64,000 nucleotides of DNA from an uncultured virus (IMG/VR IMGVR_UViG_3300047560_001157) (Duplodnaviria; Heunggongvirae; Uroviricota; Caudoviricetes): the IMG/VR virus record IMGVR_UViG_3300047560_001157; one strand, written 5' to 3'. Shown here piece by piece: positions 30,164 to 52,368 of the stretch. The notes below the pieces were generated by a model. It saw only the letters and a list, made by a program, of their open reading frames with translations. It ran no database searches and had not been told where the DNA came from. The position numbers were made by a program, and so were the translations under genes. Position 1 is the stretch's first letter; each line of letters starts with the position of its first letter.

Positions 30164-30562
30164 CTAGTCTGTAACTGTTTGTAAACCCAACACGGAAACC
30201 AAATTCCCGCTGGTTAAGTTGCCCGAAATCGTGCAGTTCAAAGTGTTTGCTACATTTCTGGTCAGCGTGGTCAGTGTACTGTTTGCAACAAACCTATCTG
30301 CGTAGCGTATAACTTCTTCACGTATGCGTACTACCCCATAAATTCCATTTTCTGCATCGGGTGCTGAATACAAACTGATGTTTGAAACCTTGATTTCAGC
30401 GTTGGCCCAGATTGTAAGATTGCCTGCTAGGGTATCATGCTTGGGCAGGCGGGGATCAATGCCAGGGTCATAGGCTTTGTTGCCTCGTAGGAATTCGGCC
30501 TGTAGCGTTTGAGCTCGATACAGGCCTGTGCCTAGCGTAAGAACATTTGATAATATTTCCAT
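30164..30562 (-). CDS. small virion protein resembling the C-terminal module of the giant baseplate ORF
   Basis: TAATG overlap with the upstream stop; GVVRIREEVIRY...LTTLTR resembles GSVWINAEKIVY...LLDLRR at the end of the 4134-aa ORF. Confidence 0.55.
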   Translation of the reverse strand: MEILSNVLTLGTGLYRAQTLQAEFLRGNKAYDPGIDPRLPKHDTLAGNLTIWANAEIKVSNISLYSAPDAENGIYGVVRIREEVIRYADRFVANSTLTTLTRNVANTLNCTISGNLTSGNLVSVLGLQTVTD

Positions 30563-36500: not shown

Positions 36501-39500
36501 AGTATCCACTTTCATCAACTGTGGTTTCTACCGCAACTGCGTTTGCCGCATCCAAGTTTTTCTTGATCTTGTCAAGGTTATCACCATAGCGAATAAATTG
36601 CAAGCTGTCGCCTGCACTCACAGTAACAGGCAAATTAACAATAACGTTAGAATAATAACCAGGAGACGCACCTGCCCATCCAGTGATCTGAATGCGGTCA
36701 GTTTTCTTGATGTCTGGACCAATCACGCTGTCACCAATTGCCAATCCAACGTTGGATGCAAGAGAAATCTCGTTAGCAATGGTACTGAACATGGCATTTA
36801 CATTTGATGTAACGCCAGGAACAATCTGACTCAATGATGCATTCTTGTCGTTGATCTTAATAGTGTCGCCTAGTGTAACGCCAACTTCAAGATAAGTCTT
36901 TTCTGTTGTAACTGTTCCGTAGTACAAGCCTTTGTTTACATAACGATACACTTGGCCGTTGTAGTAAACTTCATCGCGATACCCCGGACTACCAACTACA
37001 AGGCTCTTGTTGTCAGGGCTGATATCAACTGTGTATCCAAAACGTCCTAGGTTAACCACTGTTGGGCAAGGCAAGATTTGAATTATGTTGAAGAAGTTTG
37101 TATCGATCTTGATGCGGGCACCGTTACGAGGAATAACAGAAAGAACAATAGAGTTACCTTCAACATTATAGTCAACCAGGTTGGTTAGTAGAATGTTGTC
37201 GATGGTTACCGCTACCACGTTACGCAATGCATCTAGTGTGTAGATGTTGGTGTCGCCCAAACTTAGCAATACTTCGTAACTGCGACTGAATGTGTACACT
37301 CTACCTGCACTAGGTATTGTGTTCATATCTACATCCATGTCGTCAACGTCTGGAGCGCCAACAATTATTCTATAGCCTCCTTGGTCACACTTGACGCTCC
37401 AACCAAAGTTAGCGTCGCTGTTGATAGAATCAGGCGGTTCAATTACGTCTACCAATTGATAGAATACGTCTTTCTGCACCACAACAATAGTTGGCTCACT
37501 CAAGAAGTCGTCTGTTAAGAATACAATGTTGCCGCCGATAACAGTGTATTCTCTGTTGGGCACAAACACACGGCCTGTTGCGCCATACACCAACAGTTGG
37601 TCAATGGTTTCAGGGCGGCTTTCCAGCGCATAACTTCTAGTAACTAGATTTCTAATAATAGTTGGTGTAATAGTTGTCTGCAAGCGCAAACGGTTGATGT
37701 AAATCTTTTCTTGTGTCGCAATACGATCATAATCAGCAAAATAGATACCACCAGCGTTGTCAACTGTGTAGTCAAAGTTTGGTTCGTATAGTTTACCGTT
37801 GCTACCTAATACTTTCAATTCGCTTGCTGATTTCAAATTAAACAAGTTCGTTGCATAGGATAACTGATTTGTCACAGGTGTTAAAGTAACACGAGAATAG
37901 TTCTGTGTTTTCTTACCATATGCATATACTTTGTTAGCACCTGGTGCACCAATGTAGATCCACTGTTGATCTGGGCTCATTGCAACGCTATGACCAAATC
38001 TATCGCCTGCCATTAGATCTGCTGGGTATAGCAATTGATAGCTGATCCACTGTGATCCTAGCGTCTGGCTTATGAAAACACCACCAGTGTCGTTATAAGA
38101 TCCTGGTGCACCAATGGCAGCAAGAATTGTGCCAATGTCAACGCTGTAGCCAAATTCTCTAGCATAGCTGTTAAACGGCTTGATCAACTGTGTTTCTTCG
38201 ATTGTTGTTTTGTTTTGGTCAGGGCGTAAGAATGTCTTAACTTGTCCAATTGGCAATACTGCTTCAACAATAGCACCACTACCTGTTCCTGACAGGTCAA
38301 CAATTTCAACTGTTGGAATTTCTAAATAACCTTGACCATAGCTGATAACACTGGTTCCAGTAAAGTTAGAAATACCGTCAATGGTACGTCCAATATTACC
38401 CGTTGCACCAGTGCCGCCACCGTAGTACAAATTAGCATAAGTGTATTGAGTATCGTAATCACTGCCTGGATTCAATATGGTAATAGTGTTAATTGCACCA
38501 TTGGCAAAAGTTGTCACGGTGCCAGAGAATCCGCTACCAGTGGCGCTGTTTGCCATGGTAATGATTGTACCAGATCCGTAACTTCTTCCACGGCTGGCTG
38601 TAGCACCAGTAAATCCAACTGATTGTATACCACCATTACTGTAAAAACTTAAATCTGCACGTGCGTTATTTGCATAATCGCTTGAGTGTGTTGAGATTGT
38701 AATGGTTGGTTCTCTGTAATCTTGTCCTTTGTCAGTAATAACAAATTGGTCAACTGATGTTAGTTTTAATCTAGCTCTTAGTGTAACAGGAGTTGGGTTG
38801 TTGGTTAACAAAATCACTTCAGGTTCTTCTGTATATCCAGAACCTTGGTTAGTAATAACAACTTCGGTGATACGACCACCTGTTAGTACTGCACGTGCAG
38901 TTGCACCAAAGCCACCACCGCCAACAATTTCAACAGTTGGAGTGATAATAAATCCACTGCCGCCGTTGACAATTTCTATGTAGTCTACACCTGTAGGACT
39001 TAGTTTTGATACTACGCGGCCACCAGTGCCTCTATAGAATTTAACATCTTTGCCACTGCGTACACTTAGGCTGGTTGTGATTACCCAGCTGGTTGCTGAG
39101 CCAGTACCTTGAACTATTTCAATTTGTGCTGTTAATGTTGTACCAGTAAAATCAATTACATAACCTTCAATGTACGTAGAAAGGTCACCAGTCTTGTACG
39201 CACGAATACCAGCACCTGGTACAATTGGTGTTAATGTGGCTGGCAAATTGGTTGTAAATGTTACTGTGCCTGTGGCTACAGGAATAGGTGTAGCACTGAT
39301 CAATCCGGCGTATGCTGGTCCTTCAATCTTAACACGATGTCCGGCTAAGTCAGTATCAGTTACTTGATAATCAGCCGGGATACCATCGCCGATTACATAA
39401 TCGCCTAGATAGATGTGATCCAAGTCAGCTGTGCTAACATACAACCAATCTGTGTTTAATGTTTCTGCTGTGGTTATAGTATTCCACTCGTCTAGCAAGG

Positions 39501-42500
39501 TAACGTTTGGAGAAATAGTATAACCAGCGCCAGTTGTAAGCACGTTGGCCTTGGTTAAAGTACCGTTGTCTTTGGTAACAGAGAAACTTGCTTGTTCGCC
39601 ATTTAATCCAGTAGGAGCAGTGATTCTAACCACAGGGTTTGAATAGTTAGCACCTGGATCAATAATTCGTAGTCCAGTTAATGATCCATTGGTAAAGTAT
39701 GGTGTACCTGCTAAAATAATCTGATTGTCGGAACTTAATCTAACTTCACTACCATATCCCTCTTGGTAACGATCTTCACCTTGACGCAATGGTAACAATT
39801 GATCAAACTGCCAACCGTCAATCTTTTGGAACACACCCCAAACATTTTCTGCTTGATCGTTGTCTACCCAGACACGGTCCTGATCTCTCCATCCATGTGG
39901 TGGTGTAAATTCAATAATTTCACTTACCAAGTTGAATCGTACACTGATCATTCTAAAGTATACGCCTTCACTTTCAACACTTTGCACTTGAGCAAATGTT
40001 TCTAGTCCACGATAGCCTGTAACAAGAACACTCAAGTTGTCTTCGATTGTTTTAACAATGTAGAAACCATCAAATTCATTGTTGTTAAAGTTCTTGATTA
40101 CAATTAATTCTTTTACACTTGCGCCATGAGGCTTATCAAATGTAAACAGTAAATCTGTTCCACTGGTTCTAGTAATAGAATTCAACAATACATCTGTTTC
40201 TGTAGCACGATACATATTCCAACTCTTGTTGAAATCAACAGCTACCCACAGTTTGTATCCTGCGCCCAGTGTGTTTACCAACTGATAGTAGTTTTGATAA
40301 TTTTCAATGTTATAGATTGTACCGTCTACGTCATCCAAGCGTGGATAACCAGCAGTGACGTTATCACCAATTCTTGGCTTTAGGTCAGATCTAGTTTTTA
40401 CAATATTCTTGCTGTAGTTTTCTTCACTGGTTCTATAGATTGTGTATGGAGTAAAGTTAATTACGCCTGATACATCTGCTTCGTCTTTGTCCAGCAGATT
40501 AATAGTAGCAGGATCTTCTGTAAATGATTGGTCACTGAGTTCTACTTCAATGTACTGATCACTGCCAGTGGCACCGTATTCGCCAACACGCAAGGCCCAT
40601 TCTTCGTACAATGTGATTTCACTGGTAACTCTATCAAAGTTTCCAGATGTTAATCTTTCAATTGCGTTCTTTGTACCTTTTTGTTTAATGTAGCCTTGAT
40701 AGAATTTAACCTGGGCACGATTTTCAATACCCAAATCATTTAGATATTCTCTGTTTCTAAAACCAATCAAGCCATATGAGTATTTGTCAAAGTTTTCATC
40801 GCGGTCTTGGTACTCCATGTCATAGACATGTTTCAAGCGTCCTGCGGAATTTGACAAGTTTGGTAATAGGCCTGTTTTAATTCTGTTCTTGTCGATTGGC
40901 TTCCAGTAGTTGAAATTAAACGTTGTGCTTTCAGGAACCTTTTGTAATGCTACAAAATATTGGTTCTTGTAACTGACCAAGCTGCCAATGCTGTAAGTTC
41001 CGCCAGGTTGCCATTCGTCAACTTCCTGGCTGTTGTAGATATAACCAGGGGCATTCAATTGACCAGTCCAGTTGCCTGACTTAAAGCCAATTAGACGCAA
41101 CCGATATTGTCTGTTACCAATCTCAGGCTGATAGATTACATCGTTGAACACAGTCTGGTTGTCAAATATCAACACATGTTCGTATTCAACCAAGCTCAAG
41201 TCGGCCAGCGCAATCATCTTGCCATATAATGCATTTGCAGTAAACACGCCTTGATCGCGAGTTACTGTATAATCGCCTTGACGAATTAATGCAAAGTTTT
41301 GATCCAGCAGTTTGTTGCCAATCAGTCTATTAGTAATATGATCAACTACACCGTAATCAGCTGTCACAGAAATATTGCTACCCACTGGGCTCAATACAAT
41401 AACATTACCGGGTGCCCAACCTTGTCTACTCCAGGTTAGGAATTCGCGAATAGCCAAGTCCCAGTCTTGTGCTGTACCTAGCTCATCATTGTTTCTTTCA
41501 AAGTTAAATCCATTGGCTGTTAGATAGCGACCATAACTGGTCAAGAAGTCTGCAAGCTGTTGATGCGTTTTGAATTCAAAGCCATATGGTATTGTCAACT
41601 TACGCAGTTGATAATCTCTGTATACTCTTACACTTAATCCTAGCTCGCTGATACTATAAGCATTGTTGTTAATTTCGCTAGGTACAATAGTAAAGTATGG
41701 TCTTAGAATATCGTATCCGCTGACTTTCCAACCATTGGTGGTTACTTCTACAATAATAGCACTGTAGATTAAACGCTTTACTGGTGTGCTCTTGTGCAGA
41801 TGAACTCTGTAGTTTTCGTCAGGAATAATAATGTTGCGTCCGCTACCTCCTGGACTACTTTGCTCTGCTACAACTTCCATCATGTTCTTGTCAGTGAAGC
41901 CAGCCAGCTTGTAACTTAAACGTACATCCAAACGTTTGAGCCAATCGCGCATACGTGCTGATCCGTCAATACCTTGTTGTACTAGGAAATCTCTTATCCA
42001 GTTACTGTATCCGGCTGTGAGCGCAACATCGCTGTCTTTTAATCCAGAATCTGGTACAACAATCTGATCCAAGATCAAACGTTGACGACTGGTGATATCA
42101 GTGATTTGTTTTAGTTCTGAATCATAGCGATATCTATTGTTATCAAACTGTGTGCCTAGATAGAACCCAGGTCTTGCCAGGATCAATGCAATTTGTACAG
42201 CATATGGATAGTCACTGCTACGACGCCATGCTGTTTCAACAGGTCCGTGGTCTCCAATGCTAAACGATGCACTGGTATCCGTAGGATTGTAATTGGTAAC
42301 GCCAAGATTAATTGGGCTCACCAGCTCTCCTGTATCAGTCACTGGAATAATCTTTGACAGTCCAGGACGGGCAAAACGCAAATCAATGCCAGCACGTGTG
42401 CCATCAACTATGCGTCCTGCTTCTAGGTCTTCCCACAAAACTTTGTTACCGCTGGTGTATGGTGCTGGACCATAGTATGTTTCCCACCAGTCTGGCTTGG

Positions 42501-42966
42501 TACTAAAGCCAAGCATCTCCCATGGCATGGTGTGTGGACGATCAGTATCATAGAAATATTTGTAAACACCGCGCCAGTAGCCAGGTAAAGATTCTCCTGT
42601 GCTGTCTTTGAAACGTGCATAGTTCCAGGTCCAAGAATTGTTTGGATCAAAGTAACTATTTGAACTGTAGTCTAATCGGTTGTTGCCAATCCAGCTAAGG
42701 AATGTTCTTGTGATCAGCTGATTAAATTCTTGTCTAGAATAATCTGTAGATCTAAACTTACCAGGAATATCATCATAGATTTCTAACAATGTATCGTCGT
42801 ATTCAACTTTGATATTATTGTAAATTCTACGCTCTAGTTCCAACAACATATCATCACGATAGTCATTGAATGCAGGGGTTAGGCTACCATCGTGTCCTTG
42901 AATAACATTGATAGGAGTTCTGTAAGAATCGTCAACTATCAAAGTAGGTGTAAATTTAGGATACAT
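30562..42966 (-). CDS. giant baseplate-wedge/virion protein, C-terminal part (4134 aa)
   Basis: Downstream of the gp6-like gene; FG-GAP-like repeats, G.GY..P.V.I repeats and VKPYRTQIR; in frame with the upstream ORF across one TGA. Confidence 0.8.
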   Translation of the reverse strand: MYPKFTPTLIVDDSYRTPINVIQGHDGSLTPAFNDYRDDMLLELERRIYNNIKVEYDDTLLEIYDDIPGKFRSTDYSRQEFNQLITRTFLSWIGNNRLDYSSNSYFDPNNSWTWNYARFKDSTGESLPGYWRGVYKYFYDTDRPHTMPWEMLGFSTKPDWWETYYGPAPYTSGNKVLWEDLEAGRIVDGTRAGIDLRFARPGLSKIIPVTDTGELVSPINLGVTNYNPTDTSASFSIGDHGPVETAWRRSSDYPYAVQIALILARPGFYLGTQFDNNRYRYDSELKQITDITSRQRLILDQIVVPDSGLKDSDVALTAGYSNWIRDFLVQQGIDGSARMRDWLKRLDVRLSYKLAGFTDKNMMEVVAEQSSPGGSGRNIIIPDENYRVHLHKSTPVKRLIYSAIIVEVTTNGWKVSGYDILRPYFTIVPSEINNNAYSISELGLSVRVYRDYQLRKLTIPYGFEFKTHQQLADFLTSYGRYLTANGFNFERNNDELGTAQDWDLAIREFLTWSRQGWAPGNVIVLSPVGSNISVTADYGVVDHITNRLIGNKLLDQNFALIRQGDYTVTRDQGVFTANALYGKMIALADLSLVEYEHVLIFDNQTVFNDVIYQPEIGNRQYRLRLIGFKSGNWTGQLNAPGYIYNSQEVDEWQPGGTYSIGSLVSYKNQYFVALQKVPESTTFNFNYWKPIDKNRIKTGLLPNLSNSAGRLKHVYDMEYQDRDENFDKYSYGLIGFRNREYLNDLGIENRAQVKFYQGYIKQKGTKNAIERLTSGNFDRVTSEITLYEEWALRVGEYGATGSDQYIEVELSDQSFTEDPATINLLDKDEADVSGVINFTPYTIYRTSEENYSKNIVKTRSDLKPRIGDNVTAGYPRLDDVDGTIYNIENYQNYYQLVNTLGAGYKLWVAVDFNKSWNMYRATETDVLLNSITRTSGTDLLFTFDKPHGASVKELIVIKNFNNNEFDGFYIVKTIEDNLSVLVTGYRGLETFAQVQSVESEGVYFRMISVRFNLVSEIIEFTPPHGWRDQDRVWVDNDQAENVWGVFQKIDGWQFDQLLPLRQGEDRYQEGYGSEVRLSSDNQIILAGTPYFTNGSLTGLRIIDPGANYSNPVVRITAPTGLNGEQASFSVTKDNGTLTKANVLTTGAGYTISPNVTLLDEWNTITTAETLNTDWLYVSTADLDHIYLGDYVIGDGIPADYQVTDTDLAGHRVKIEGPAYAGLISATPIPVATGTVTFTTNLPATLTPIVPGAGIRAYKTGDLSTYIEGYVIDFTGTTLTAQIEIVQGTGSATSWVITTSLSVRSGKDVKFYRGTGGRVVSKLSPTGVDYIEIVNGGSGFIITPTVEIVGGGGFGATARAVLTGGRITEVVITNQGSGYTEEPEVILLTNNPTPVTLRARLKLTSVDQFVITDKGQDYREPTITISTHSSDYANNARADLSFYSNGGIQSVGFTGATASRGRSYGSGTIITMANSATGSGFSGTVTTFANGAINTITILNPGSDYDTQYTYANLYYGGGTGATGNIGRTIDGISNFTGTSVISYGQGYLEIPTVEIVDLSGTGSGAIVEAVLPIGQVKTFLRPDQNKTTIEETQLIKPFNSYAREFGYSVDIGTILAAIGAPGSYNDTGGVFISQTLGSQWISYQLLYPADLMAGDRFGHSVAMSPDQQWIYIGAPGANKVYAYGKKTQNYSRVTLTPVTNQLSYATNLFNLKSASELKVLGSNGKLYEPNFDYTVDNAGGIYFADYDRIATQEKIYINRLRLQTTITPTIIRNLVTRSYALESRPETIDQLLVYGATGRVFVPNREYTVIGGNIVFLTDDFLSEPTIVVVQKDVFYQLVDVIEPPDSINSDANFGWSVKCDQGGYRIIVGAPDVDDMDVDMNTIPSAGRVYTFSRSYEVLLSLGDTNIYTLDALRNVVAVTIDNILLTNLVDYNVEGNSIVLSVIPRNGARIKIDTNFFNIIQILPCPTVVNLGRFGYTVDISPDNKSLVVGSPGYRDEVYYNGQVYRYVNKGLYYGTVTTEKTYLEVGVTLGDTIKINDKNASLSQIVPGVTSNVNAMFSTIANEISLASNVGLAIGDSVIGPDIKKTDRIQITGWAGASPGYYSNVIVNLPVTVSAGDSLQFIRYGDNLDKIKKNLDAANAVAVETTVDESGYLTIAVKTDSNLGALDILPGASGTALDGIGLKIYELTQVLQHPRYGVPEKFGTRVAIDDTGNTVAVASEGGNTLKTSTFDGKLTLFDTDTTRFIDSLNASGAVYLYDYLNPPGETLANPGKLLYNQVLQNAFVLTGDNFGSSVDVNRGWALVGADRSDYHSPDAGAVHMFVNEKNVKGWSRLRERGDQIDIDYINKALLYDKVKQVSIIDLDYFDPVKGKILGIVDQDLDYKSSYDPAQYNRGVRTTVNIAEDSSWNASQVGQTWWDLSLCRYIDYEQGPLNYRSTNWGTLFPDSQIQVAEWVSSPVLPSQYAEFSGDGQAKYPDNSAYVEEAYYESTSGLIKTQYYFWVVNKQLFDRTKTSRVSSVVTLESLISDPAAQGVPYVAAIASNAFNIYNFKEYLKASDTVFRLEYSRKLGDIISHNEYELIQQGDENARIPQKLISKLIDSLSGENSTGAVVPDLKLTTADAYGISNLPRQSMIIDNLSAAKVFVSFVNNILLKKQINNKRNLARFYAAEEIPAAGVGFYDAAVDTVDQLLYIPASELFDGFKVLVKVDSDFFNYWTIYEYNQYVGFRMIRIQSYDTSRWWNFADWYADGYDQYTNIDYIVNRYNDIAKLSLNVGNTVKVLDLGKGLYSVYEYQVDGSLIEVIAEKGTIQLSSGLYNTDISRTGFDNSAFDQVGFSTTQSIELRNIFEGLVYDIFVNEDQVEINNLFFTLLNYILSEQVVVDWAIKTSLVTVLHKIRKLEQFTNYIKDNQTYYESYINEVKPYRTQIREYLLDYNGIENLNPGVSDFDFPSYYDKSIGNYKVLDPANARDLILINGSNRRDWIENYKYRIQSLALNSGGAGYTIAPRVSITGGGGTGATARAVLGIPVADGTASVVEVILTNPGSGYTSVPTVTFNGGNGTGASAAVQLVQDPTAPITSTTLNKKIRSVLTKIKFDRISYTSELKFWKPYEIYHPGDLLVLDDVREQYFANYTERTLPRFSFVYRVLKTLTGRSSIDLNLFEDATVVEKINGSDIENANDRIAAYLQPGSPEVAQIYSSPNTIRLVPGAINDQIISVAKQWNSVRHSVFYPVQHGYQYAAVGDASLIGLSKDGIEWTTNRITDTGINARDVILYRNYTWVVVANQGTIYTNDDGENWVSEKVNTYRFSPTNDNVNGLIQENIAQTLDITGGASAMTTYADYLVIAGNNGLILANARGNSYFDTAFNGWYNVKVQNQLIIQNYLKLISIDFGYLTDIDGTTYKVEIQPVSGYFTESISVAARTMKAGFVMTLGINGAINVITYNALDDYMQGYLYGYNYNNGKAGNVNYPWKPLSVPIDVKGLNDGYSGQQLASVATSGTDSNWIVVVGSGGTLIWNQFGLVIEEQEGRAELAPDTIDKTVINYKFNSYENFRKFDADNFVAPLTTAYLENIDFNDITWDGEKFVVVGNKSIILWGYPGYMSEAYIEMGFLSPTLSVATLREAASWTGGSGITSLVIQISAIDIDARSIMVGMNASGTGIPADAVVSNVVVGLTTHLITISFAATTVATASERNVLFTTGLNSGLAIGDKITVSNGSTTSQLTVSRAAVRGDRKIYVSDYNQNVDVNWAISGTGVPVNIRVRFVGKKASFSWQFAPGVEENVNLDYRTVSVNTKTITLSKPLLTHGGNVTGVYTGNVVTFYDPTGTVISLTATQNLPGNAQILTFDSIRNLEVGYDLQANTSLGIQEGTKITSVVNYNIAGVLSGLQKDIPALVPGTGYTGSQVQGKKFTDTVEDALGMDTVITSEFTDDLLGVRPEDITIDGGKFIDTYSSHAPEELVPGQVIDSLQMNVFTANIVNGQPDYGNVIAYKIFTDYKLSTTYYRLGASSTTMLTQDLRFDDTQIAVDDISKLPDSGSVWINAEKIVYQSVDRVNGLLLDLRRGSLRTSVAPIHEMGSLITDASPSQLVNEDFTTPITEDVIVENGIVGGANTSTYLSSEVTSIPQGRIWLDLDT

Positions 42967-45900
42967 TCACAACTTGGTTGGAGTTTCTGGAATGTAGTTT
43001 TCTACAGTGGTTGAATAGTCAACAATAACAATCACGCTGGTGTAGGTTAAGGACACAGAGTCTTTAACAAGAATACTAGAAGTATCAGTTAGGAAATCAA
43101 AATCAATTCCTCTTATTAACTGTTGAACAGTTCTAGTGGTTGTGTCTTGTAAGTATACCAATACCGCACGACGAGATAGCACAGTAGGATCAAAAGTATC
43201 TGGAATCAGATATGTTTTTTGTCTTACATTCAACACTGGTATGCGAGTGGTTTTACGGAACTTTGATCCGTATGGAACCATGTCGCTGTCGTACCACGGG
43301 CTCATTGAGCTCTTACCTACCATGATGCTTTCTAATACACGATCAACCGATGCAGGAATATCGTATGGGTCAATCTGTGACTTAGCTGCCATGTCCAAGA
43401 AACGATTCTTGAACTTAGAATATTCTTTTTGTGCAAATTCGATTGCCTGAACAACATTCAAATCTTTGTCTGTCATAAACAAAGCTGCCATGGCCACAGG
43501 ACTTGCGTGTTGTAGAATTGAGCCTTGCCAGCTCTTATTAGAAATGTTGCGTAGGTTATTATTTCCCAGTGTTGGGCCAACTAAACCATAGTGATTTTGT
43601 GTTTTGGTAACCAGGTGATTTCTAATTTGTCCCAGTGTCAAATACTCAAAGTTATTATTCAATGGATTCAAATCAAAGTTAACTGGTGTTTCATAATGTC
43701 CAATTGTAGACTGTGACTTGCTGTATATTTTAATAATAACCTGTTTGTTGGTGTCAAGGTTAGATGTGTTAATAACAATAGCCTTGCGACCGCCAAACTG
43801 TGTAAGCACATACTGTGTTGAATCCAGCAGGGTAGTTCCAACAAATACTTTTAAGTAAGGTATTGTGTTGCTGGTTTCTGGTTCAATGTCAACTTCAAAA
43901 TAGTTGGTTGTACCATCATATTGATGTGTGATAACCTGATACTGTTTTGATTTTTCAGTAACTGGAGTCCAGATGTTTCTTAAACGATAACTGTCGCTGG
44001 TGCTTTGTTTAAGAACAAAGTTCTTAATTGGAATTGAAACTTCGCCAAACCCTAACAAGTAACTAAACGTATCGGTCTGGAAGTAGTTAGAGAATTCAAT
44101 ATCACCAACGTTTTGGAAATTCTTATAGGTCAGTGAGAAATTCAGCACAGTGTCTGCTTTACCCGAGCCTATGCGATATCCAAAGATCTTGGTACCTGTG
44201 AATTTAGTACCAGGGTATGTAGTACCATCGCCGGCACTGTATCCATTTTTATCAAACGCATCAAACAGTGGTTCTTGATTGGTGTCTGATTTTTGTTGTG
44301 CAGGCAACCATTCTGTGCCTGTAAAATAATATTGATTGTATGTAACAATATTAGTCGAAGTTTGTCTAGCGTTAGTAGGAATATTAACAACCACAGTATC
44401 GCCAACATCATATGTTTCTGGTGTGGTGTCTTCGACATCTATTGCAGAGTTCTGCTGATCAATTAATGCCACTGCTTCGGCGGCATAGGTAAATGTTACT
44501 TCGATGTCACTGAACTCAGGTTGTAGTATATCTAATACAATTCTCTTTTCAAACACCGCAGACGCTGTTTGTTCTAGAACCAATGCTACAACTTTAGGTG
44601 TATTTGCACCAGTGGTTAAACCAACACCAAAGTTATCATAGGTACTTGTTACTTTTGCACCAACAACTACACCAGTGTAGGTGTCAACTTTTAGTACTTT
44701 ACCAGACTGGTACTGAATTGGTGCTAGAGTTGTTGGATCAAGGTATGTGATTAAATTTGTGCTGCCAGTACATGCTGCCACCTTGGTAACAACAGGATAC
44801 AATGATTCAATAGTTATTTGTGGAGCATGTACATATCCACGACCTGAATTTGTAATGTCAATGTAGTCAATTTCAGATGATGCAATGGTTGCTGTTATGT
44901 CTGCATTGTTGTTGAAATAAACTGGTGTTAGTGCTGGAACAGTAACGTCACCGGAAAGTTTAATTCTTCTAGTATAAGCATCAACGTTTAATACAGTAAC
45001 GGTATAGGAAATGTATCCAGATACATCTTTAACTACCATGCCAGGTTGTACACCTGCAACGGTGTCTAGAACCATTTCATTGCCAGTTACGATTTCTGCA
45101 ACACTAAGGAATCCAGATTTTGTATTTCCTGGAACTCTAGCACTAGAACCATAACCGTCTTCTGTGAAGAATCTGCTTTGGCAAGTTACAAAAATCTTGG
45201 AATCCAATGGCAAGTCAATTACTTCGCCATCTGAGTCTAAGCTTCTAATAGGCCCATCTAATACCAAACGATCGGTGTCCACAGTAACAACTGTACGAAT
45301 ATCTGCACGTGTTAGTGCAATATCCATAAACGAAATGTAGTCATCCGGATTTGGTCCAGTGTAATCTGTTTCCGCATACGGAGTCAATCCAAAATCTGTA
45401 TACAACTCATTGCCGTTAATAGTAGAAACCAAGAATACCAACCAACCTGGTTTAATTGCACTAAGGTCTGTGCCTTCTGCAAAATACAAAGTATCAGTTC
45501 CGTAAGTTGATGTAGCCGATGTTTTCAGTTCTACATAACTTACAATTTCAGCTTGTACATTTTCACCAACTTTGTAACCAGCGCCTGGGTTTACAATTTC
45601 AACATAGCTAATAAGATTATCATTTACCACAGCAGTTGCAGTGGCCTGGTTACCTTGTGTGTCTTCAATGGTAACAGTTGGTGCAGATGCATATCCGGAG
45701 CCGGCATTGGTAACGGAAATATTATAAATGGAGTTACCATCGCTACGTGCAATAGCAGTAGCAGGAACACCTGCAAACACCAGTTTTGCGCCAGCACGAA
45801 TTGTTACATTCTTGTCTGTTACAAACTGTGTAGAACTTAACACCTTTGCTACTTTTGTTTGAGCATAGTCAATGGTGTAGGCAGTGATCAAACCACCGCT

Positions 45901-48822
45901 TACATAGTCTGTAAAGTTACGTGAGTCTTGTTGTGCGGCAGTAGAAAAACTAGAGTCTGTGTACAAATCAATTGCAGTTTCGCTGATTCGTTTTACATAG
46001 TAACGTGAAAAGTTTAATTCAACTGTACCAACAATATCGCGAATAAAGATCAAGTCTCCGTCATTGAGATTGTGCAGTGATGAAGTAATTACACGAGTTG
46101 GCACAACATCAATTCTTATACTGGATATAGATATTGGTCGTTCGCCGCCGCTGACAATCATACCAACATCAATCATGCTGGTATCATCAACTGTAACAGT
46201 CTTGGCATTTTGTACAGTAGATTGTACAACTGCATAAGTGCCAGCAGTTACATTGGTCTTGAACACCCACTGGTCACCAATGGCCACTGTGGTAATACCT
46301 GAAATAGGTGGCACTGAATCAACGTTAGCTGAAATAGCAGGTGCATTGATTGTGATCAAGTTTGCAGTTTGATCTACTGCTGTAATAATTGTTCCGCCAA
46401 TGATACCGTTACCAATTACCTGAGCGCCTGGTTGTATGCCTAGCCATTGACTGGTTGTAATGCCATTGGCTTCAAAAGTTAAACCAAACTGTCCTACTGT
46501 GGCATTTGAAATTACTGCATAGTAGGTATTAGGATTACTGATGTGTACATTTGGATTGGTTGCTGTGTAGCCAGTACCACGTGCAACAAGTCTAATGTAG
46601 TCAACGTGCTTGTAAGGCTGGTATACAATATTGGTTTCAACTGCGGTGGTGTAATCACTGCTGATAGAAATATAAGGATCAGCAACATAGCTGATGCCTG
46701 AATTGTTTACGCCAATTGAATCAACACCGGATGTTTTTAGAACTACATTACCTGTAGCAACTTCTGTGCCAATGCCTGGCAGTGGAGAAGAGAATGTTAC
46801 ACTTGGTATAAAGTTGTAGCTTAGATTTGATGTTATTACAGCAGAATTTACTGTGTATGTTGGCAACGTGCTGGTGTTTTGACTCACCAAGTGAATCTGT
46901 GTTCCAGTGCTGGTTGTAATAAAATCAACTCTGTAGATCTTGTTGTTTACTTCTGGATCTTCGTCGGCAGCAAAAATAATTCGTGTACCAGCAGTAAGAG
47001 CACGTGTAACGCCGTTGGGCATACGAATTACATAGTTCGTTTGTCCTTCAACTTCTTTGAAAGCATCAGTGATAGTAAAGTCAATTATATCAACTGGGCT
47101 TTTGGCTGTGCGACCATAGTCAAACAAATAAATGTCTGGATCAAATTCAATGATTGGACGCTTGGCTCTTTGTATACCCGATATGTCCAGCAATGCTGGC
47201 TCTTCTCTGTACTTGGCTGCTGATTCAATTGTTTCAATATGGAACCAACGGTTGCTTCTGGACCAAGCATTTAGATCGCGGCTGGCGCGATTAATCGTAA
47301 TATAGTCAGGAGTTGCAAGATTGCTGAGTTGTGCATAGTTTTCAGGAGAACTGAAATTACCAATGCTGATCAATTTAATTGCATCGCCTACACCTTCAAC
47401 AATGTAATTGTTGTTAGCATAAGAACTTGGAATTGCAGTATCATCAAATCTAACATGCAGACCGTTGGTAAACACCACCTGGTTAGGACTTGTATAGTTT
47501 ACTTTACCAACGATATCTTCGTCGATGTTAATTGTTTCTGTGCCTGGATTCACCAGTCTAATAATACCAGCAAACTTGTTGTCTGACCCGTCTTGATAGT
47601 ACAAGGTATCCAACGAAGCAGTAAGAGGAGGAACTGCTTCATATTGATTTGATTGATTCAATAGATATTCAACGTTGGAATTTTTTGTACCTGCTTTGAC
47701 GTAGACTTTTTCTCCCAATGCAACTTGTTGGATAGGATCCAGTTTAACAATTTGACGACCGCCTGCAACAGAAACCAAACGAATTCTAAAAATTCCCTTG
47801 CGGTTTACACCTGCAACGGTATCACCTGCTTCAAATCCTTCGCCGTCGTAATCAAATGTACCCGGCTGACCGTTTTCTGTACCTACGTCAAAGTTACCAG
47901 GATCTGTCCAGGCATCATTGTTGTTGTCATCAGTTAAAAAGATTAGAGTCTTGCCATTCAAACCTTGACTAACTCCATCAATGCCTCCAATGAGAGCAAG
48001 CTGGTTAGTCATTGCGCCTTGAATTTGGCTGTATTTTTTAGTTGTGGCAAAATCAACTGTGGCTGCTGTTTTTGCTGTTAAGAAAGTATCCTGTGCATTG
48101 CCAGCTGGTACGCTGAATTCAATTTCGCCAACATCAATACCATTGTTGTTTACGCCGAGCACACGGCGACTTAGTTCGGTTGCACTATCGCTGTAGGTTC
48201 CAGTGGCACCTAGATTTGTTTGGATCCAAAATGGATGACCTGGCTGGTTAACCTTGATACGATATGTTTGTCCTTTGATCAATGTGATGATAGGGTTTTT
48301 ATCGTTACCAAATTCAGTAAACTGATAACCTTGTACAGCAAGTGATCTGCTGACATTGTACAGAGACGAAACATCTAGATTGCTCGCGGTTACAGTAACT
48401 TCTGGCGGGCCATTTGGTAGCCATAGGTATTGTGTAAAGTTAACAAACTTGTCAATGTCAAAACAACCATCAAATGTGTAACTGTCACTGCTGAACAATC
48501 TGCTATGGTCATTTGTTAAACCACCATAGTATGAAATTTGTTGTAATAGATCTAGATAGCCATTGTAAAAGTCAGTCTGGCCTTGACCAGCATCTACTAG
48601 TACCGAAGATTCAAGTTGATAGTTTTTCCTATCTGTGTTTGGTTCTTTGATATAAGTGTCGCCAGTGCTCCATGCTGGTGCATCTTGACGACCAATATAA
48701 GAATCAACTCGTACAGTGGTGTCTGCTTCGCTGATCAATTGATCAACGGTGGCTGCAAGAAACTTTTTGTTAGTTTCACTGCGGAATACTTCAGGTAAAA
48801 GATTTATACTTTTAATAGACAT
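42967..48822 (-). CDS. giant baseplate-wedge/virion protein, N-terminal part (1951 aa)
   Basis: Follows the gp6-like gene; N-terminus LLPEVF...KFL..; carries the same repeat types as the 4134-aa ORF. Confidence 0.8.
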   Translation of the reverse strand: MSIKSINLLPEVFRSETNKKFLAATVDQLISEADTTVRVDSYIGRQDAPAWSTGDTYIKEPNTDRKNYQLESSVLVDAGQGQTDFYNGYLDLLQQISYYGGLTNDHSRLFSSDSYTFDGCFDIDKFVNFTQYLWLPNGPPEVTVTASNLDVSSLYNVSRSLAVQGYQFTEFGNDKNPIITLIKGQTYRIKVNQPGHPFWIQTNLGATGTYSDSATELSRRVLGVNNNGIDVGEIEFSVPAGNAQDTFLTAKTAATVDFATTKKYSQIQGAMTNQLALIGGIDGVSQGLNGKTLIFLTDDNNNDAWTDPGNFDVGTENGQPGTFDYDGEGFEAGDTVAGVNRKGIFRIRLVSVAGGRQIVKLDPIQQVALGEKVYVKAGTKNSNVEYLLNQSNQYEAVPPLTASLDTLYYQDGSDNKFAGIIRLVNPGTETINIDEDIVGKVNYTSPNQVVFTNGLHVRFDDTAIPSSYANNNYIVEGVGDAIKLISIGNFSSPENYAQLSNLATPDYITINRASRDLNAWSRSNRWFHIETIESAAKYREEPALLDISGIQRAKRPIIEFDPDIYLFDYGRTAKSPVDIIDFTITDAFKEVEGQTNYVIRMPNGVTRALTAGTRIIFAADEDPEVNNKIYRVDFITTSTGTQIHLVSQNTSTLPTYTVNSAVITSNLSYNFIPSVTFSSPLPGIGTEVATGNVVLKTSGVDSIGVNNSGISYVADPYISISSDYTTAVETNIVYQPYKHVDYIRLVARGTGYTATNPNVHISNPNTYYAVISNATVGQFGLTFEANGITTSQWLGIQPGAQVIGNGIIGGTIITAVDQTANLITINAPAISANVDSVPPISGITTVAIGDQWVFKTNVTAGTYAVVQSTVQNAKTVTVDDTSMIDVGMIVSGGERPISISSIRIDVVPTRVITSSLHNLNDGDLIFIRDIVGTVELNFSRYYVKRISETAIDLYTDSSFSTAAQQDSRNFTDYVSGGLITAYTIDYAQTKVAKVLSSTQFVTDKNVTIRAGAKLVFAGVPATAIARSDGNSIYNISVTNAGSGYASAPTVTIEDTQGNQATATAVVNDNLISYVEIVNPGAGYKVGENVQAEIVSYVELKTSATSTYGTDTLYFAEGTDLSAIKPGWLVFLVSTINGNELYTDFGLTPYAETDYTGPNPDDYISFMDIALTRADIRTVVTVDTDRLVLDGPIRSLDSDGEVIDLPLDSKIFVTCQSRFFTEDGYGSSARVPGNTKSGFLSVAEIVTGNEMVLDTVAGVQPGMVVKDVSGYISYTVTVLNVDAYTRRIKLSGDVTVPALTPVYFNNNADITATIASSEIDYIDITNSGRGYVHAPQITIESLYPVVTKVAACTGSTNLITYLDPTTLAPIQYQSGKVLKVDTYTGVVVGAKVTSTYDNFGVGLTTGANTPKVVALVLEQTASAVFEKRIVLDILQPEFSDIEVTFTYAAEAVALIDQQNSAIDVEDTTPETYDVGDTVVVNIPTNARQTSTNIVTYNQYYFTGTEWLPAQQKSDTNQEPLFDAFDKNGYSAGDGTTYPGTKFTGTKIFGYRIGSGKADTVLNFSLTYKNFQNVGDIEFSNYFQTDTFSYLLGFGEVSIPIKNFVLKQSTSDSYRLRNIWTPVTEKSKQYQVITHQYDGTTNYFEVDIEPETSNTIPYLKVFVGTTLLDSTQYVLTQFGGRKAIVINTSNLDTNKQVIIKIYSKSQSTIGHYETPVNFDLNPLNNNFEYLTLGQIRNHLVTKTQNHYGLVGPTLGNNNLRNISNKSWQGSILQHASPVAMAALFMTDKDLNVVQAIEFAQKEYSKFKNRFLDMAAKSQIDPYDIPASVDRVLESIMVGKSSMSPWYDSDMVPYGSKFRKTTRIPVLNVRQKTYLIPDTFDPTVLSRRAVLVYLQDTTTRTVQQLIRGIDFDFLTDTSSILVKDSVSLTYTSVIVIVDYSTTVENYIPETPTKL

Positions 48823-48834
48823 TCTATCACTTCA

Positions 48835-51800
48835 TTACAATTGAACTGCGGTAATAGCAGTTATAATTTCAACATCATCTGGCGTAGCACAACTAATAAT
48901 TATTTCATCAGGTTCAGCGTTGATTTGATACAAATTACCAAAGTTTTGCTGTGTACTCTTAGGAACAATAATCACGCTACTAATCTTTGTTGATAGCTCT
49001 GAGTGCAAATACGCACTCAACTCACTGAAATAAAAACTTTCACCAAAATCCCAATTGGTAACATCAAAATATTTGTTCACGGCTGCAATCACCGCAACCT
49101 TGACATCATTGTCGCTGATAACAATCTCAGGATTTTTAACTACCTTGAATGTAGCACGAAGTGCTTCATTGGCCTTTGCACCAAAAATTGGCTTGAATCT
49201 AGCAGGGTTGTAGATAATGGTATCACTGATGGTTTTGTAATTCTCAAGTTCACCGTAGGCCAATCGCAGTTGTTCAACATCAACTTTGATTGGCTCAGAC
49301 ACTTTACCACTGGTATCTTTGATCCAGGACTGATAGTCTGACGCATAACTCTTGGTTAGAATATACAAGTCAACAATGTTGTTTGGACTTGGATCAATTC
49401 TTCTATTAGAAGGGCTGGCATGACGATACTGGAAATACAAACCACGACGTCCATACAACCATAGATATTTTTCACCGTTGGCACTTTGTGTTAGTGTACG
49501 AGTTTCAACCCCTCTGCTTGCTGTAACGCTCAAGTCATAGAATTTGTTTTCTTCTGTTGCGTAAAAAATTTGTCCATCTTCGTACAAATTGTAAGCCTGT
49601 ACAATATCGCCTTGAGAAGCATAAAGCGTAGATACCAACGTGCTGGCAATAGGCGTAAACTGTTCAAAGCTGTTGTTATTATATGTACGTTTGAAGTACA
49701 CATACTTGCTACTTGAGTTAACCGCAGGATTTACTAACTCTTCAAAGATGTCAGGATTGTCTGGCACACCGTCGCGGTTGTTGTCAGAAAATTTAACTAG
49801 AATCTTGTTTGTGTTTTCGCGACCGTCTGGGTCAACAATCATTTTGTAGATAAACCAAGTTTTATCTTCGTACAAAGCTGTGTTACCATCAGGCAAACTG
49901 TTTGAACGTAAAACTTTAACTTGGTCGCTGAGTGTTGTAGCACTTTTACTGTCATACACACGCACACGTGGATCAAAATAGAATTTGGTTTCCTGTTCGC
50001 TTTCAAAGATATAGTTTATCTGACGATAGTAAATTTTATAACCAAATGTACCAGATACAAATGCCATGATCCAAGAACTGTCCAATGACGAACTGGTTTC
50101 GTCGCCTGCATAAGTTCCGCTGTATTCAGCGTTGTATCCATCAGTGTTGATCAACACGCTGTTGCTTTGTTTTAATTTCAAATCCTGCGGCTGAATAATA
50201 TTCCAGGTTGCTTGGATTTGATCAAATCTTAAACCAAAGTTTTTCTTGCTGTTGATCAAAGTAACAGCAGAGCGCAACACGTCTGGCGGAATAATATTGT
50301 AAATCTTAGGAATGATTTCATCAATGTACGCACCAGTAGGAACAAATGTACTCAATGTAATTGGTCCAGCATCTGCTGTGGTTAAAACACCATCGCCTGT
50401 ACCATCGCCTAGTACGTTTACAACTGTGGCATATATGTACAAATGATCGCCTGTGGCGTTTGGTGAACCGTCAACAATCTCGTTTGCTGAATTAAAATAT
50501 TTAGGTAACAATCCATTGTCTGATGTAGCACGGAACTTGATAATGCTGCCTGGCTTAACATATTTCAGACTGTTAGAACTTGCGGCACCAGTTTTCAATG
50601 CTGGCAGTGCCAAGGTTCCTGTGGTTTGTTTGCCAGTGGTTGCATTCAGTGTAGCATTGTAACTTTGTGCTGTACACAAAAATCCTGTACTTTGATTTGT
50701 GCTAACAGTCATCTGTTGCCAAGCACATTGGAAGATACTTCCGTTTACATCCAGGTCTGTTGTTTTGAATCTACGAAACTTTGAATAGATAAACTGACTG
50801 AAGGCAATGTAATTGTTAACCAACAGTTGATTATTCAAAATTTCATTAAACTGTCCGATGATGTCTCCAGACGTTTGTGGAACAAAGTCAAGACTGTCAA
50901 TGCTTTCGTTGCGATATAAAATTCCGTCTTCAGCAAAAATGTTTGTGCTGGAATATTTGCCTGTAACATCTAGTGTGTCAAGGTAACGGCTAATACCAGA
51001 GCTGGAACGGTTAGTACTCTTGATTTTAAGAATACTGTTGAATTTTGTAAATGGCAGGATGTTGTAATCCTCGCCGGTGATCATACGATTCTGTGTGTAG
51101 TACTGCTGTGGCGCTTTGTTTTTAATTTCTGTTAGTGTTTCACGAGCATTGGCATTGTTGACAGTGTAATACAAGCTCGCTCTGAGTGTTAAGGTTTCTG
51201 CTCGTCCGTTGCGGCTTACATAGGTAATTGGAACTAACACGTTTTGCATTTCTGCTGGCGCAATTTTATAATTCAAGCCGTTGCTCACACGATAGAACAA
51301 ACGGAACTTACCACTTGGAATGTTTGCAAACGCACCGTCGCCAAACACTAGATCGACCTGGTCGCCTGCGCGAGTATTGATCTGGTACAGGTTACGATTA
51401 ACTGAAGTGTTGTAAATGATGTTAACGCCGGTTACGCTTTCAGTTTTTTCCCACAGCTCAACATAGTTGCCATTGTCATCTAGTTGATACAACCATACGT
51501 CATCGTTGTTGATGTTGTCAACGTTAACTGACACTGTACGGTTAGGTAACTTTTGATCTAAAGTAAAATCAAGGTTGCGTAGTTCTCCTTGCTTGAAATA
51601 CATAAACCAACCACTGTTGGTGCTGTCGTTGCCTAGGTTATCATTACGATACAACAAGTTGAAAATACTGCGTGGACGTGGCTCACGCTCGTATACATAT
51701 TCTTGATTCAAGCTGGTAGGGCTAACCATTTCAAAGCGCATCAATGTTCCATTGACATTGCTCTCATAGCTGAAAGTTGGCAGTACGTTGTTAAGAATAT

Positions 51801-52368
51801 TAAGGCTGTATTCATCTGTTTGAATACCGCCAATGGCTTGGCTGTTGCCAGGCTTGCCCACAACCTGACTGTCAATCAAGGCTGCATTCAACACCAAGCT
51901 GAATTGCTCTAGCCAGTTGTCGTTGCCAGGGTCGTTCCAATTAACAGGCACATTGGACAATTCAATGCTGTTGCTGTCCATTAATGCTTCAGTGGTGCTG
52001 ATTGCTTCAACACGCATCAATCCAGTAGCGGCTACGTTTCTTTTAGGAACATAACTAACCAAACGAGCCAGGTTTAGAACGCTGTCTCTGCGCTCTGCTG
52101 TGTCAATGAAGTTTTCTCTTGCGTTAAGATCATTACGAAACGCTAGACTCTGTCCCAGGAAAGCAATCAAGTCAATCAGGGCTACATACTCACTGCTTTC
52201 AATAAAATCGTTGAAGTCTTCAGGATAGTAAGTGCGTAAGTAGTCGATCATTGTCTTACGCAATGTTTCGAAATCGTAGCTTTGGAAGTCAGCATTTTGG
52301 AAGGTTTGGTAAATCTTCTTCCAATCCTGTTGTACTAACAAATTAGTTTGTCTGGTTGTAGCAGCCAT
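48835..52368 (-). CDS. baseplate wedge subunit, T4 gp6-like
   Basis: DFQSYDFETLR, FNDFIESS, ENFIDTAERRDSV..LA..VSY.P, FGDG and TQNRMITGEDY. Confidence 0.85.
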   Translation of the reverse strand: MAATTRQTNLLVQQDWKKIYQTFQNADFQSYDFETLRKTMIDYLRTYYPEDFNDFIESSEYVALIDLIAFLGQSLAFRNDLNARENFIDTAERRDSVLNLARLVSYVPKRNVAATGLMRVEAISTTEALMDSNSIELSNVPVNWNDPGNDNWLEQFSLVLNAALIDSQVVGKPGNSQAIGGIQTDEYSLNILNNVLPTFSYESNVNGTLMRFEMVSPTSLNQEYVYEREPRPRSIFNLLYRNDNLGNDSTNSGWFMYFKQGELRNLDFTLDQKLPNRTVSVNVDNINNDDVWLYQLDDNGNYVELWEKTESVTGVNIIYNTSVNRNLYQINTRAGDQVDLVFGDGAFANIPSGKFRLFYRVSNGLNYKIAPAEMQNVLVPITYVSRNGRAETLTLRASLYYTVNNANARETLTEIKNKAPQQYYTQNRMITGEDYNILPFTKFNSILKIKSTNRSSSGISRYLDTLDVTGKYSSTNIFAEDGILYRNESIDSLDFVPQTSGDIIGQFNEILNNQLLVNNYIAFSQFIYSKFRRFKTTDLDVNGSIFQCAWQQMTVSTNQSTGFLCTAQSYNATLNATTGKQTTGTLALPALKTGAASSNSLKYVKPGSIIKFRATSDNGLLPKYFNSANEIVDGSPNATGDHLYIYATVVNVLGDGTGDGVLTTADAGPITLSTFVPTGAYIDEIIPKIYNIIPPDVLRSAVTLINSKKNFGLRFDQIQATWNIIQPQDLKLKQSNSVLINTDGYNAEYSGTYAGDETSSSLDSSWIMAFVSGTFGYKIYYRQINYIFESEQETKFYFDPRVRVYDSKSATTLSDQVKVLRSNSLPDGNTALYEDKTWFIYKMIVDPDGRENTNKILVKFSDNNRDGVPDNPDIFEELVNPAVNSSSKYVYFKRTYNNNSFEQFTPIASTLVSTLYASQGDIVQAYNLYEDGQIFYATEENKFYDLSVTASRGVETRTLTQSANGEKYLWLYGRRGLYFQYRHASPSNRRIDPSPNNIVDLYILTKSYASDYQSWIKDTSGKVSEPIKVDVEQLRLAYGELENYKTISDTIIYNPARFKPIFGAKANEALRATFKVVKNPEIVISDNDVKVAVIAAVNKYFDVTNWDFGESFYFSELSAYLHSELSTKISSVIIVPKSTQQNFGNLYQINAEPDEIIISCATPDDVEIITAITAVQL

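Follow-up and report, generated by a model that had tools for sequence, protein, structure and literature searches.

An in-frame TGA, probably a record-specific nonsense allele, interrupts a giant virion gene of an uncultured jumbo myophage

In the 64,000-nucleotide stretch analysed here (IMG/VR record IMGVR_UViG_3300047560_001157, an uncultured member of the Caudoviricetes; hereafter, the window), a single in-frame TGA separates two open reading frames (ORFs) of 1951 and 4134 aa that, judged by their collinearity with undivided relatives, are one gene of 6086 codons interrupted at codon 1952. The TGA is neither a conserved nor a regulated feature of this gene and is probably a non-programmed nonsense allele specific to this record. 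Most likely it marks a real haplotype that also carries two further single-base differences in this gene and that exists beside an intact one, with GGA, in the same population. Among the origins that a preceding sequence-only reading had listed for the stop, a nonsense variant and a base-call error both survived the analysis below.

One giant gene across two abutting ORFs

Both ORFs lie on the minus strand in the same frame and with zero gap, as had been noticed initially, and reading through the TGA joins them (Table 1). Around the junction, the minus strand reads ATT CCA GAA ACT CCA ACC AAG TTG TGA ATG TAT CCT AAA TTT, that is, IPETPTKL-stop-MYPKF. The 36-nt string originally quoted from this segment is real and spans 42990-42955, its upper coordinate having been given 5 nt short, as 42985. 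The absence of a Shine-Dalgarno (SD) sequence before the ATG was likewise confirmed, with a predicted anti-SD pairing of -0.2 kcal/mol as compared to a median of -3.9 kcal/mol for the 33 starts examined. Several ATGA-overlapped genes of the window show anti-SD pairing as weak as that of the junction ATG.

Table 1 Features of the giant gene and its surroundings (window coordinates)
Feature	Position	Strand	Remarks
Giant gene, upstream part (1951 aa + TGA)	42967..48822	-	phrog_10938 profile 22-296, E 2.1e-87; all three sites that differ in G001 lie here
Giant gene, downstream part (4134 aa)	30562..42966	-	phrog_10938 profile 772-1461, E 8.2e-248; identical to G001 over 12.4 kb
In-frame TGA (codon 1952)	42967..42969	-	GGA (Gly) in the near-identical record G001; plus-strand 42969 is A in the window, C in G001
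ATG abutting the stop	42964..42966	-	Native internal Met codon after Gly (G001 reads G-M-YPKF); only candidate restart site
IPETPTKL-[G]-MYPKF, conserved on both sides of the break	42952..42993	-	Alignment A1, 25 sequences
Codon 1939, linked synonymous site differing from G001	43006	-	ACT in the window vs ACG; 37 nt from 42969
Codon 212, linked missense site differing from G001	48187	-	GAT (Asp) in the window vs GAA (Glu)
Next gene upstream, T4 gp6-like (baseplate wedge); synteny anchor	48835..52368	-	phrog_10646, E 5.6e-283; phrog_219
gp5-like baseplate hub/tail lysozyme gene, further upstream	52803..54992	-	Pfam Phage_base_V; phrog_13211, phrog_27932

Because the two halves are collinear with the phrog_10938 profile and with the single ORFs of relatives, we take them to be one gene and their join to be no chance adjacency, in agreement with the first impression of a single 6086-aa protein. 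The near-identical record G001 carries a single 6086-aa ORF across the site, and residues 2-6083 of its product align end to end with one 6288-aa ORF, one high-scoring segment pair (HSP) crossing the junction. The supposition that both halves carry the same repeat modules held weakly: BLASTP recovered one module of ~105 aa (residues 979-1083 of the N-terminal half against 1266-1378 of the C-terminal half; 30% identity, E 7e-8), and a phrog_460-like domain is present in both. Pfam detected FG-GAP_2 repeats in the downstream piece and, beyond these, only a sub-threshold E1_FCCH for the two halves, while neither half had a match in NCBIfam and phmmer searches with both returned 0 matches among PDB sequences.

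By profile match and synteny, the product of the giant gene is assigned to the phrog_10938 virion structural proteins, here of an uncultured freshwater jumbo myophage. In six of the eight cultured phages, the gene next upstream bears the annotation of a baseplate wedge protein; in SCTP-2 and a Vibrio phage it is named otherwise. This synteny suggests a baseplate location for the giant protein, whose gene, going by the T4 gene order, may occupy the gp7-equivalent position. The RefSeq record of the PA5oct homologue carries a note of detection by ESI-MS/MS. The phage itself is not among the cultured records, as a blastn search of 50,697 phage records with this region yielded nothing beyond 100 matching bases in phage Phosso. 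The closest uncultured relatives of the giant protein measure 6091-6307 aa; a query of viral contigs with the N-terminal 400 aa returned no relatives. For a predicted model of residues 1702-2402, Foldseek found no match in the PDB at E <= 0.001, and in VIA-align only a beta-sandwich (model positions 151-237) matched common tail-fibre and baseplate domains, with Z <= 8. Within this modelled part, no likeness to the core of T4 gp7 or TssG came to light.

The interrupted codon in near-identical and related genomes

The window and G001 differ by 3 mismatches in 51,776 bases (99.994% identity). One of them is the stop itself: TGA, recognized early on as one substitution away from glycine GGA, is indeed GGA in G001, a G-to-T difference on the coding strand. 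All three differences fall inside the 5.9-kb upstream piece, which, were they randomly spread, would happen with a probability of about 0.0015, i.e. (5856/51776)^3. The sequence around each is unique within the window, and mis-mapping of repeats is therefore unlikely. DGR-like or repeat-driven mis-assembly was considered and ruled out, the three sites being far apart and in unique sequence.

Contigs assembled from two runs, X1 and X2, bear on whether the T instead arose as an error of consensus, assembly or base calling, in a phage that truly has GGA and makes one 6086-aa protein, a reading that we hold to be possible but doubtful. The intact codon stands both in G001 and in an X1 contig (8993 bases, depth 9.2), GGA being the outcome initially named as pointing to such an error. 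The TGA allele was not found beyond the window, in that the X1 contig reads GGA and no X2 contig spans 42969-42985, a comparison resting on assembled contigs, which show neither the allele in reads nor its frequency. TGA-bearing proteins come from one contig only in a collection of 15 billion proteins. Artefacts of oxidative damage typically include G-to-T changes, and two of the three differences are of this type on the coding strand.

Other observations speak against an error. Three differences within one gene look like strain variation, and their neighbourhoods are unique sequence. Split and intact products stem from separate JGI contigs, of 73,149 and 94,879 bases, respectively. A random error would create a stop with a chance of about 4.2%, and only 0.61% of the stops possible in this gene abut an ATG. 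In X2, the end of one contig (42968) and the start of another (48188) each directly adjoin a variant site; between them, the piece with the G001 allele at 43006, an allele found in contigs of both runs, has a depth of 7.8 as compared to 14.5 and 14.8 in the flanks. Such contig ends at two of the three variant sites, with half depth between, resemble real strain variation and hint at a real polymorphism. However, X2 contigs also break at 43324/43330 and at about 47751-47768, where the window and G001 agree, and the breaks are thus not specific to variant sites.

Across relatives, the aligned codon encodes glycine in 89 of 89 DNA loci, drawn from three sets (38/38, 15/15 and 36/36; 39 of the 40 loci of the first set aligned, phage CBB giving no HSP), and is a stop in none of them. 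At the protein level, the site holds Gly in 117 of 118 related proteins and Ser in the remaining one, with no stop, and is always internal (residue 219-2392). The residue after the glycine, scored in 119 proteins, is Leu in 103, Met in 11, Ile in four and Val in one, so that the pattern PTKLG(L/M)YP, offered at first for related proteins, is borne out by loci and proteins alike. Within alignment A1 (25 sequences), P244, T246, P247, K249, L250, G251 and P258 are invariant, and the segment around the break reaches a pLDDT of 84-89 in the predicted model. A single CDS is annotated across the site in all eight cultured relatives, and in three related IMG/VR genomes the frame runs open, without a stop, for 6292, 5055 and 4211 aa. 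As judged from these comparisons, the ancestral codon at the break is glycine GGA.

Homologues are consistently one gene and give no sign of a recurrent split, which leaves the earlier option of a genuine, conserved gene split without support. We deem it very unlikely that the giant gene of this lineage is permanently divided into two translationally coupled genes. The zero spacing of the TGAATG is as in coupled pairs, the downstream piece has suffered no further damage and equals G001 throughout, and the fragments flanking the break are predicted to bind each other (see below); yet what is nearly the same genome has the gene undivided, no relative is divided at this site and the ATG lacks an evolved SD sequence. 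Only one of 120 inspected proteins, P0018 (4113 aa), starts just past the site, by 9-10 residues. Its gene nearly fills a 14,044-base contig and its 92%-identical relatives have the glycine and an open frame, and P0018 is therefore probably cut by the contig end.

Readthrough and restart at the break

With GGA in G001 and relatives free of the stop, readthrough and recoding are as unsupported as a conserved split. Programmed readthrough or local recoding, by which a near-cognate tRNA would insert Trp, or a phage suppressor tRNA Gly, at the TGA often enough to be useful, with a short and a long form made under regulation, appears highly improbable. The frame does stay open for 4134 codons past the stop, and UGA followed by A, the context found here, is leaky in E. 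coli. Decoding of UGA by Trp-tRNA-Trp in competition with RF2 is documented (PMC10570021). However, besides the missing conservation of the stop, no stable RNA structure lies downstream: over 42990-42840 (151 nt), the folding energy is -27.1 kcal/mol as compared to a shuffle mean of -25.4 kcal/mol (z -0.47), and 60 of 200 shuffles fold as well. The option of programmed readthrough raised by the sequence-only reading is hence not supported.

A complete relative, G002, encodes a suppressor-type tRNA, but with the anticodon CUA. Within the ~107 kb of the phage's own genome that the analysis covered, no tRNA was found in the window or in positions 1-60000 of G001, and a UCA suppressor tRNA was absent from both as well as from the 30 tRNAs of G002. 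TGA terminates 14 of the 39 window ORFs of at least 100 aa, of which the 13 others would extend by only 1-12 codons; TGA is thus a normal stop elsewhere and the genome is not recoded throughout, as had been claimed. Treating TAG as sense raises the coding cover of G002 from 0.898 (table 11) to 0.930, and treating TGA as sense raises it to 0.946; rises this small are expected for any removed stop and consequently give no sign of recoding.

Returning to the nonsense allele, one G-to-T substitution on the coding strand would have turned the near-invariant GGA of codon 1952 into TGA, and ribosomes on a TGA-carrying genome would halt after Leu1951. Function might then be retained along three routes: restart at the abutting ATG, with two polypeptides re-associating; rare readthrough of the UGA by tRNA-Trp; or complementation by co-infecting intact genomes. 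The TGAATG has the stop-start layout of coupled pairs, and coupling is reported in a review to be unaffected by spacings between -4 and +3 nt (PMC12548453). Of all nonsense substitutions possible in the giant gene, only 14 of 2286 (0.61%) would fall immediately before an ATG, an adjacency noticed after the fact.

In complex prediction, the fragments flanking the break were predicted to bind with a score of 0.81, the best of three controls scoring 0.00; runs agreed in at least 42% of contacts and the partner pLDDT was at least 65. Of 157 solved complexes, 116 attain the binding mark used, as do two of 215 mismatched pairs. Both partners were cut from a single chain and shared their alignment rows; the prediction mainly reflects packing within the intact protein. 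Given the rare ATG adjacency and the predicted binding of the fragments, a split tolerated through stop and restart is possible. A further step would be gene fission in progress, in which a viable TGA haplotype segregates with the intact allele among freshwater phages in nature, ribosomes restart at the ATG since it abuts the stop in frame, and the 1951- and 4134-aa pieces, with their tightly packing flanks, re-associate in the baseplate; the change would have reached assembly-level frequency for being among the few that abut an in-frame ATG. We regard such fission as rather unlikely.

Implications and comparison with known systems

For annotation, the two ORFs belong together as one interrupted gene, and should be described neither as two genes nor as a readthrough site or an alternative code. 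More generally, single stops in 18-kb phage genes call for comparison with near-identical records before they are interpreted. If the allele is real and frequent, it would represent a natural nonsense mutation tolerated by stop and restart, with pieces still able to assemble, and would offer a small, concrete view of a giant virion gene splitting. The accessible parts of the literature on RaK2 adsorption proteins and on phage nonsense microdiversity contain nothing on the giant protein.

Phage Q-beta offers a parallel to the layout, its UGA too being situated in a virion protein gene with a long open frame beyond it. There, the A1 stop is fixed and the extended product is a minor virion protein that the phage requires, whereas the window's stop is absent from the other record of the same phage and from every relative examined. 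Classical restart mutants after nonsense codons, as in T4 rIIB and lacI, resemble the junction in having a nonsense codon closely before an in-frame start, from which reinitiation without an SD sequence is conceivable; they differ in that, for the phage of the window, restart is suggested by the sequence layout alone. In kind, the giant protein of the window resembles the giant virion proteins of RaK2-like and PA5oct-like jumbo myophages, such as PA5oct (Pseudomonas; YP_010678859.1), Atu_ph07 (Agrobacterium; YP_009611845.1) and Phosso (Sinorhizobium; XYS97451.1), which match the same phrog_10938 family profile and conserve the block P-x-T-P-x-x-(L/I/F)-G at the break. These proteins are uninterrupted and span 3323-4555 aa according to annotated coordinates, whereas the gene of the window comprises 6086 codons and a single stop.

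An interrupted giant gene and its neighbourhood

On the minus strand, positions 42990-42952 read I P E T P T K L, TGA, M Y P K F, and the open reading frames on either side of the stop lie in one frame with a gap of 0. The sequence-only reading had located this junction correctly, save for an upper bound that falls 5 nt short. It had also described TGA as a normal stop elsewhere, and indeed the codon ends 14 of the 39 window ORFs of at least 100 aa (13 besides the upstream piece); reading through it would extend these other 13 by 1-12 codons only. As likewise described, the ATG adjoining the stop lacks a Shine-Dalgarno sequence (-0.2 kcal/mol vs a median of -3.9 for 33 starts), which is similarly lacking at several ATGA-overlapped genes of the window. 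The "same repeat modules" ascribed to both halves, however, reduce to one common, phrog_460-like domain of ~105 aa.

Features of the giant gene, its upstream neighbours and the sites differing from the near-identical record G001
Feature	Position	Strand	Details
Downstream ORF	30562..42966	minus	4134 aa
ATG adjoining TGA	42966-42964	minus	native Met codon of intact gene
In-frame TGA	42969-42967	minus	codon 1952 of giant gene
Upstream ORF	42967..48822	minus	1951 aa
gp6-like baseplate wedge gene	48835..52368	minus	phrog_10646, E 5.6e-283; directly upstream of giant gene
gp5-like hub gene	52803..54992	minus	729 aa; upstream of gp6-like gene
Variant, codon 1952	42969		window TGA, G001 GGA; stop vs Gly
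Variant, codon 1939	43006		window ACT, G001 ACG; synonymous (Thr)
Variant, codon 212	48187		window GAT, G001 GAA; Asp vs Glu

Both pieces match, in order, the same family, phrog_10938 ("virion structural protein", profile length 3324), at profile positions 22-296 (upstream piece) and 772-1461 (downstream piece). At least 1579 proteins within a 2273-7235 aa band match at E <= 1e-10, and the closest among the matches listed are single proteins of 6091-6307 aa with 65-72% identity. A tblastn search with the junction region matched 92 phage records. In all eight inspected (PA5oct, Phosso, Atu_ph07, SCTP-2, Vibrio 2.275.O, CBB, 121Q and XaC1), the site lies inside a single annotated CDS; in six the upstream neighbour is annotated as a baseplate wedge protein, other names being used in SCTP-2 and the Vibrio phage. 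The record of the PA5oct homologue notes detection by ESI-MS/MS. The neighbourhood would correspond to the T4 gene order 5-6-7. The "baseplate" label of the giant protein itself rests on synteny, as excerpts of the published Atu_ph07 and PA5oct descriptions name neighbouring baseplate genes without discussing this protein's function (PMC6102473, PMC7318152).

Further upstream, an ORF at 55011..58595 (minus strand, 1194 aa, ending in TAA) is in frame with the hub ORF across a spacer of TAA plus 18 nt. Since an SD-like AGGGA (-5.4 kcal/mol) precedes the hub ATG, these are probably two ordinary genes.

Conservation of the glycine codon and the case for recoding

The near-identical IMG/VR record G001 (94,879 bases) overlaps window positions 12225-64000 with 3 mismatches and 0 gaps in 51,776 bases. 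In keeping with the earlier reading of the two ORFs as one 6086-aa protein, G001 carries GGA at codon 1952, so that its giant gene is one unbroken ORF of 6086 aa, residues 2-6083 of which align with a single 6288-aa ORF in G002, the complete genome of a related jumbo phage (354,959 bp, with terminal repeats). All three differences between window and G001 sit within the 5.9-kb upstream stretch of the giant gene, and this clustering suggests that diversity is raised locally, or that a small tract has recombined, in the upstream part of the protein.

Glycine occupies the aligned codon in 38/38 loci of relatives from IMG/VR and cultured phages (40 were searched; CBB gave no HSP and one further locus was G001), in 15/15 metagenome loci and in 36/36 further IMG/VR loci, duplicates between these sets not having been removed. 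All four Gly codons occur at this position, and the PTKLG(L/M)YP motif given for related proteins is correct. In 32/32 loci (31 IMG/VR relatives plus G001), no stop interrupts the frame over up to 250 codons ahead of the site and up to 450 beyond it. Of the 118 relatives that cover the site among the best 120 proteins of a large protein search, 117 have Gly and one has Ser, the site always being internal (residue 219-2392). The sole exception, P0018 (4113 aa), starts 9-10 residues past the site; as its gene almost fills a 14,044-base contig and its 92%-identical relatives show Gly and an open frame, this start probably reflects a cut by the contig end. The window record alone carries the TGA, a derived change at a near-invariant glycine.

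Separately, in the IMG/VR relative L109 the giant-gene frame closes 1054 codons past the junction, other loci being open to the end of the stretch compared; the protein could be shorter here, or the gene could have a further break.

The data do not support programmed readthrough or recoding of the TGA: relatives do not share the stop, downstream RNA structure is absent (z -0.47), and there is no genome-wide TGA recoding. TGA encodes Gly in genetic code 25, but GGA to TGA is the only single substitution that makes a stop from a Gly codon, and the likeness therefore carries no weight. The window and G001 1-60000 yielded no tRNA genes, the known sequence of this phage amounting to only ~107 kb, and the 30 tRNAs of G002 include none with anticodon UCA. 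G002 does encode a suppressor-type tRNA with anticodon CUA (ARAGORN "Pyl"; L061:18225-18298), right after tRNA-Gly(UCC). Amber recoding is without clear sign there, as coding cover gains little when TAG is read as sense (0.930 vs 0.898). Also listed by ARAGORN for G002 is a permuted tmRNA-like gene (L048:10318-10763; tag peptide of 33 residues), which may be a false positive.

Natural allele or sequence error

Two sequencing runs of one freshwater sample, X1 and X2, were compared as assembled contigs, from which allele frequencies are not derivable. In X1, the stretch 42400-48700 lies on a single contig (8993 bases, depth 9.2) that has the G001 letter at 3/3 variant sites. The X2 assembly has a contig ending at 42968 and a second beginning at 48188, each exactly next to a variant site, and a 339-base piece with the G001 letter at 43006 has a depth of 7.8, compared with 14.5 and 14.8 in its flanks. 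De Bruijn graphs break where reads disagree. From these breaks and the lower depth between them we infer that both haplotypes occur in the sample, although X2 contigs also break at two places where window and G001 agree, and none of the X1 and X2 contigs compared shows the TGA. Low-depth X1 contigs (3.6-3.8) match just 18-29-base stretches of 42532-43296 before their sequence departs; diverged relatives of the phage seem to co-occur in that sample.

We consider the TGA probably a real allele. The 5.9-kb upstream piece contains all three differences (~0.0015 by chance), each in unique sequence, the split and intact products come from two separate JGI contigs, and X2 contigs end exactly beside variant sites. 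These observations favour a real haplotype over an error, which we regard as less likely, even though the TGA form is found on one contig only and two of the three differences are G-to-T, a known artefact class.

Possible restart and re-association of the two products

If the allele is real, translation would end after Leu1951, with the native Met codon coming next. Leu prevails at this residue among relatives, with Met in 11/119 proteins. Of 2286 nonsense substitutions possible in the intact gene, 14 (0.61%) have ATG directly next and 104 (4.5%) have ATG, GTG or TTG. The TGA-ATG adjacency reflects either chance or selective filtering, whereby a restart-capable nonsense allele would be able to rise in frequency. 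According to a review, termination-reinitiation is efficient at very short spacings, and one study found it equal across the range -4 to +3 nt (PMC12548453).

In an AlphaFold model of residues 1702-2402 (701 aa; mean pLDDT 66, pTM 0.68), the segment holding the break is ordered but lacks regular secondary structure (pLDDT 84-89); it links a beta-sandwich (model residues 155-235) to the alpha/beta part after it. When the flanking pieces were predicted as two chains, the binding score was 0.81, a value reached by 116/157 solved complexes and 2/215 mismatched pairs, and the best of three controls scored 0.00; contacts agreed by at least 42% between runs, with partner pLDDT of at least 65. As the pieces form one chain in every relative, the prediction mainly reflects packing inside the intact protein, and re-association of the split pieces is plausible on this model. 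Function might alternatively be secured through complementation from co-infecting intact genomes or through low-level UGA readthrough by Trp-tRNA (PMC10570021).

For annotation, the two ORFs belong together as one interrupted gene. By their size alone, genes of such length offer large targets for changes of this sort. A tolerated, restart-dependent split segregating in nature is a possibility and mildly interesting. The TGA is not a recoding signal; rather, the event is of an ordinary kind, being either a nonsense substitution or an error that looks like one, and it concerns a member of a known jumbo-phage family of giant virion proteins.
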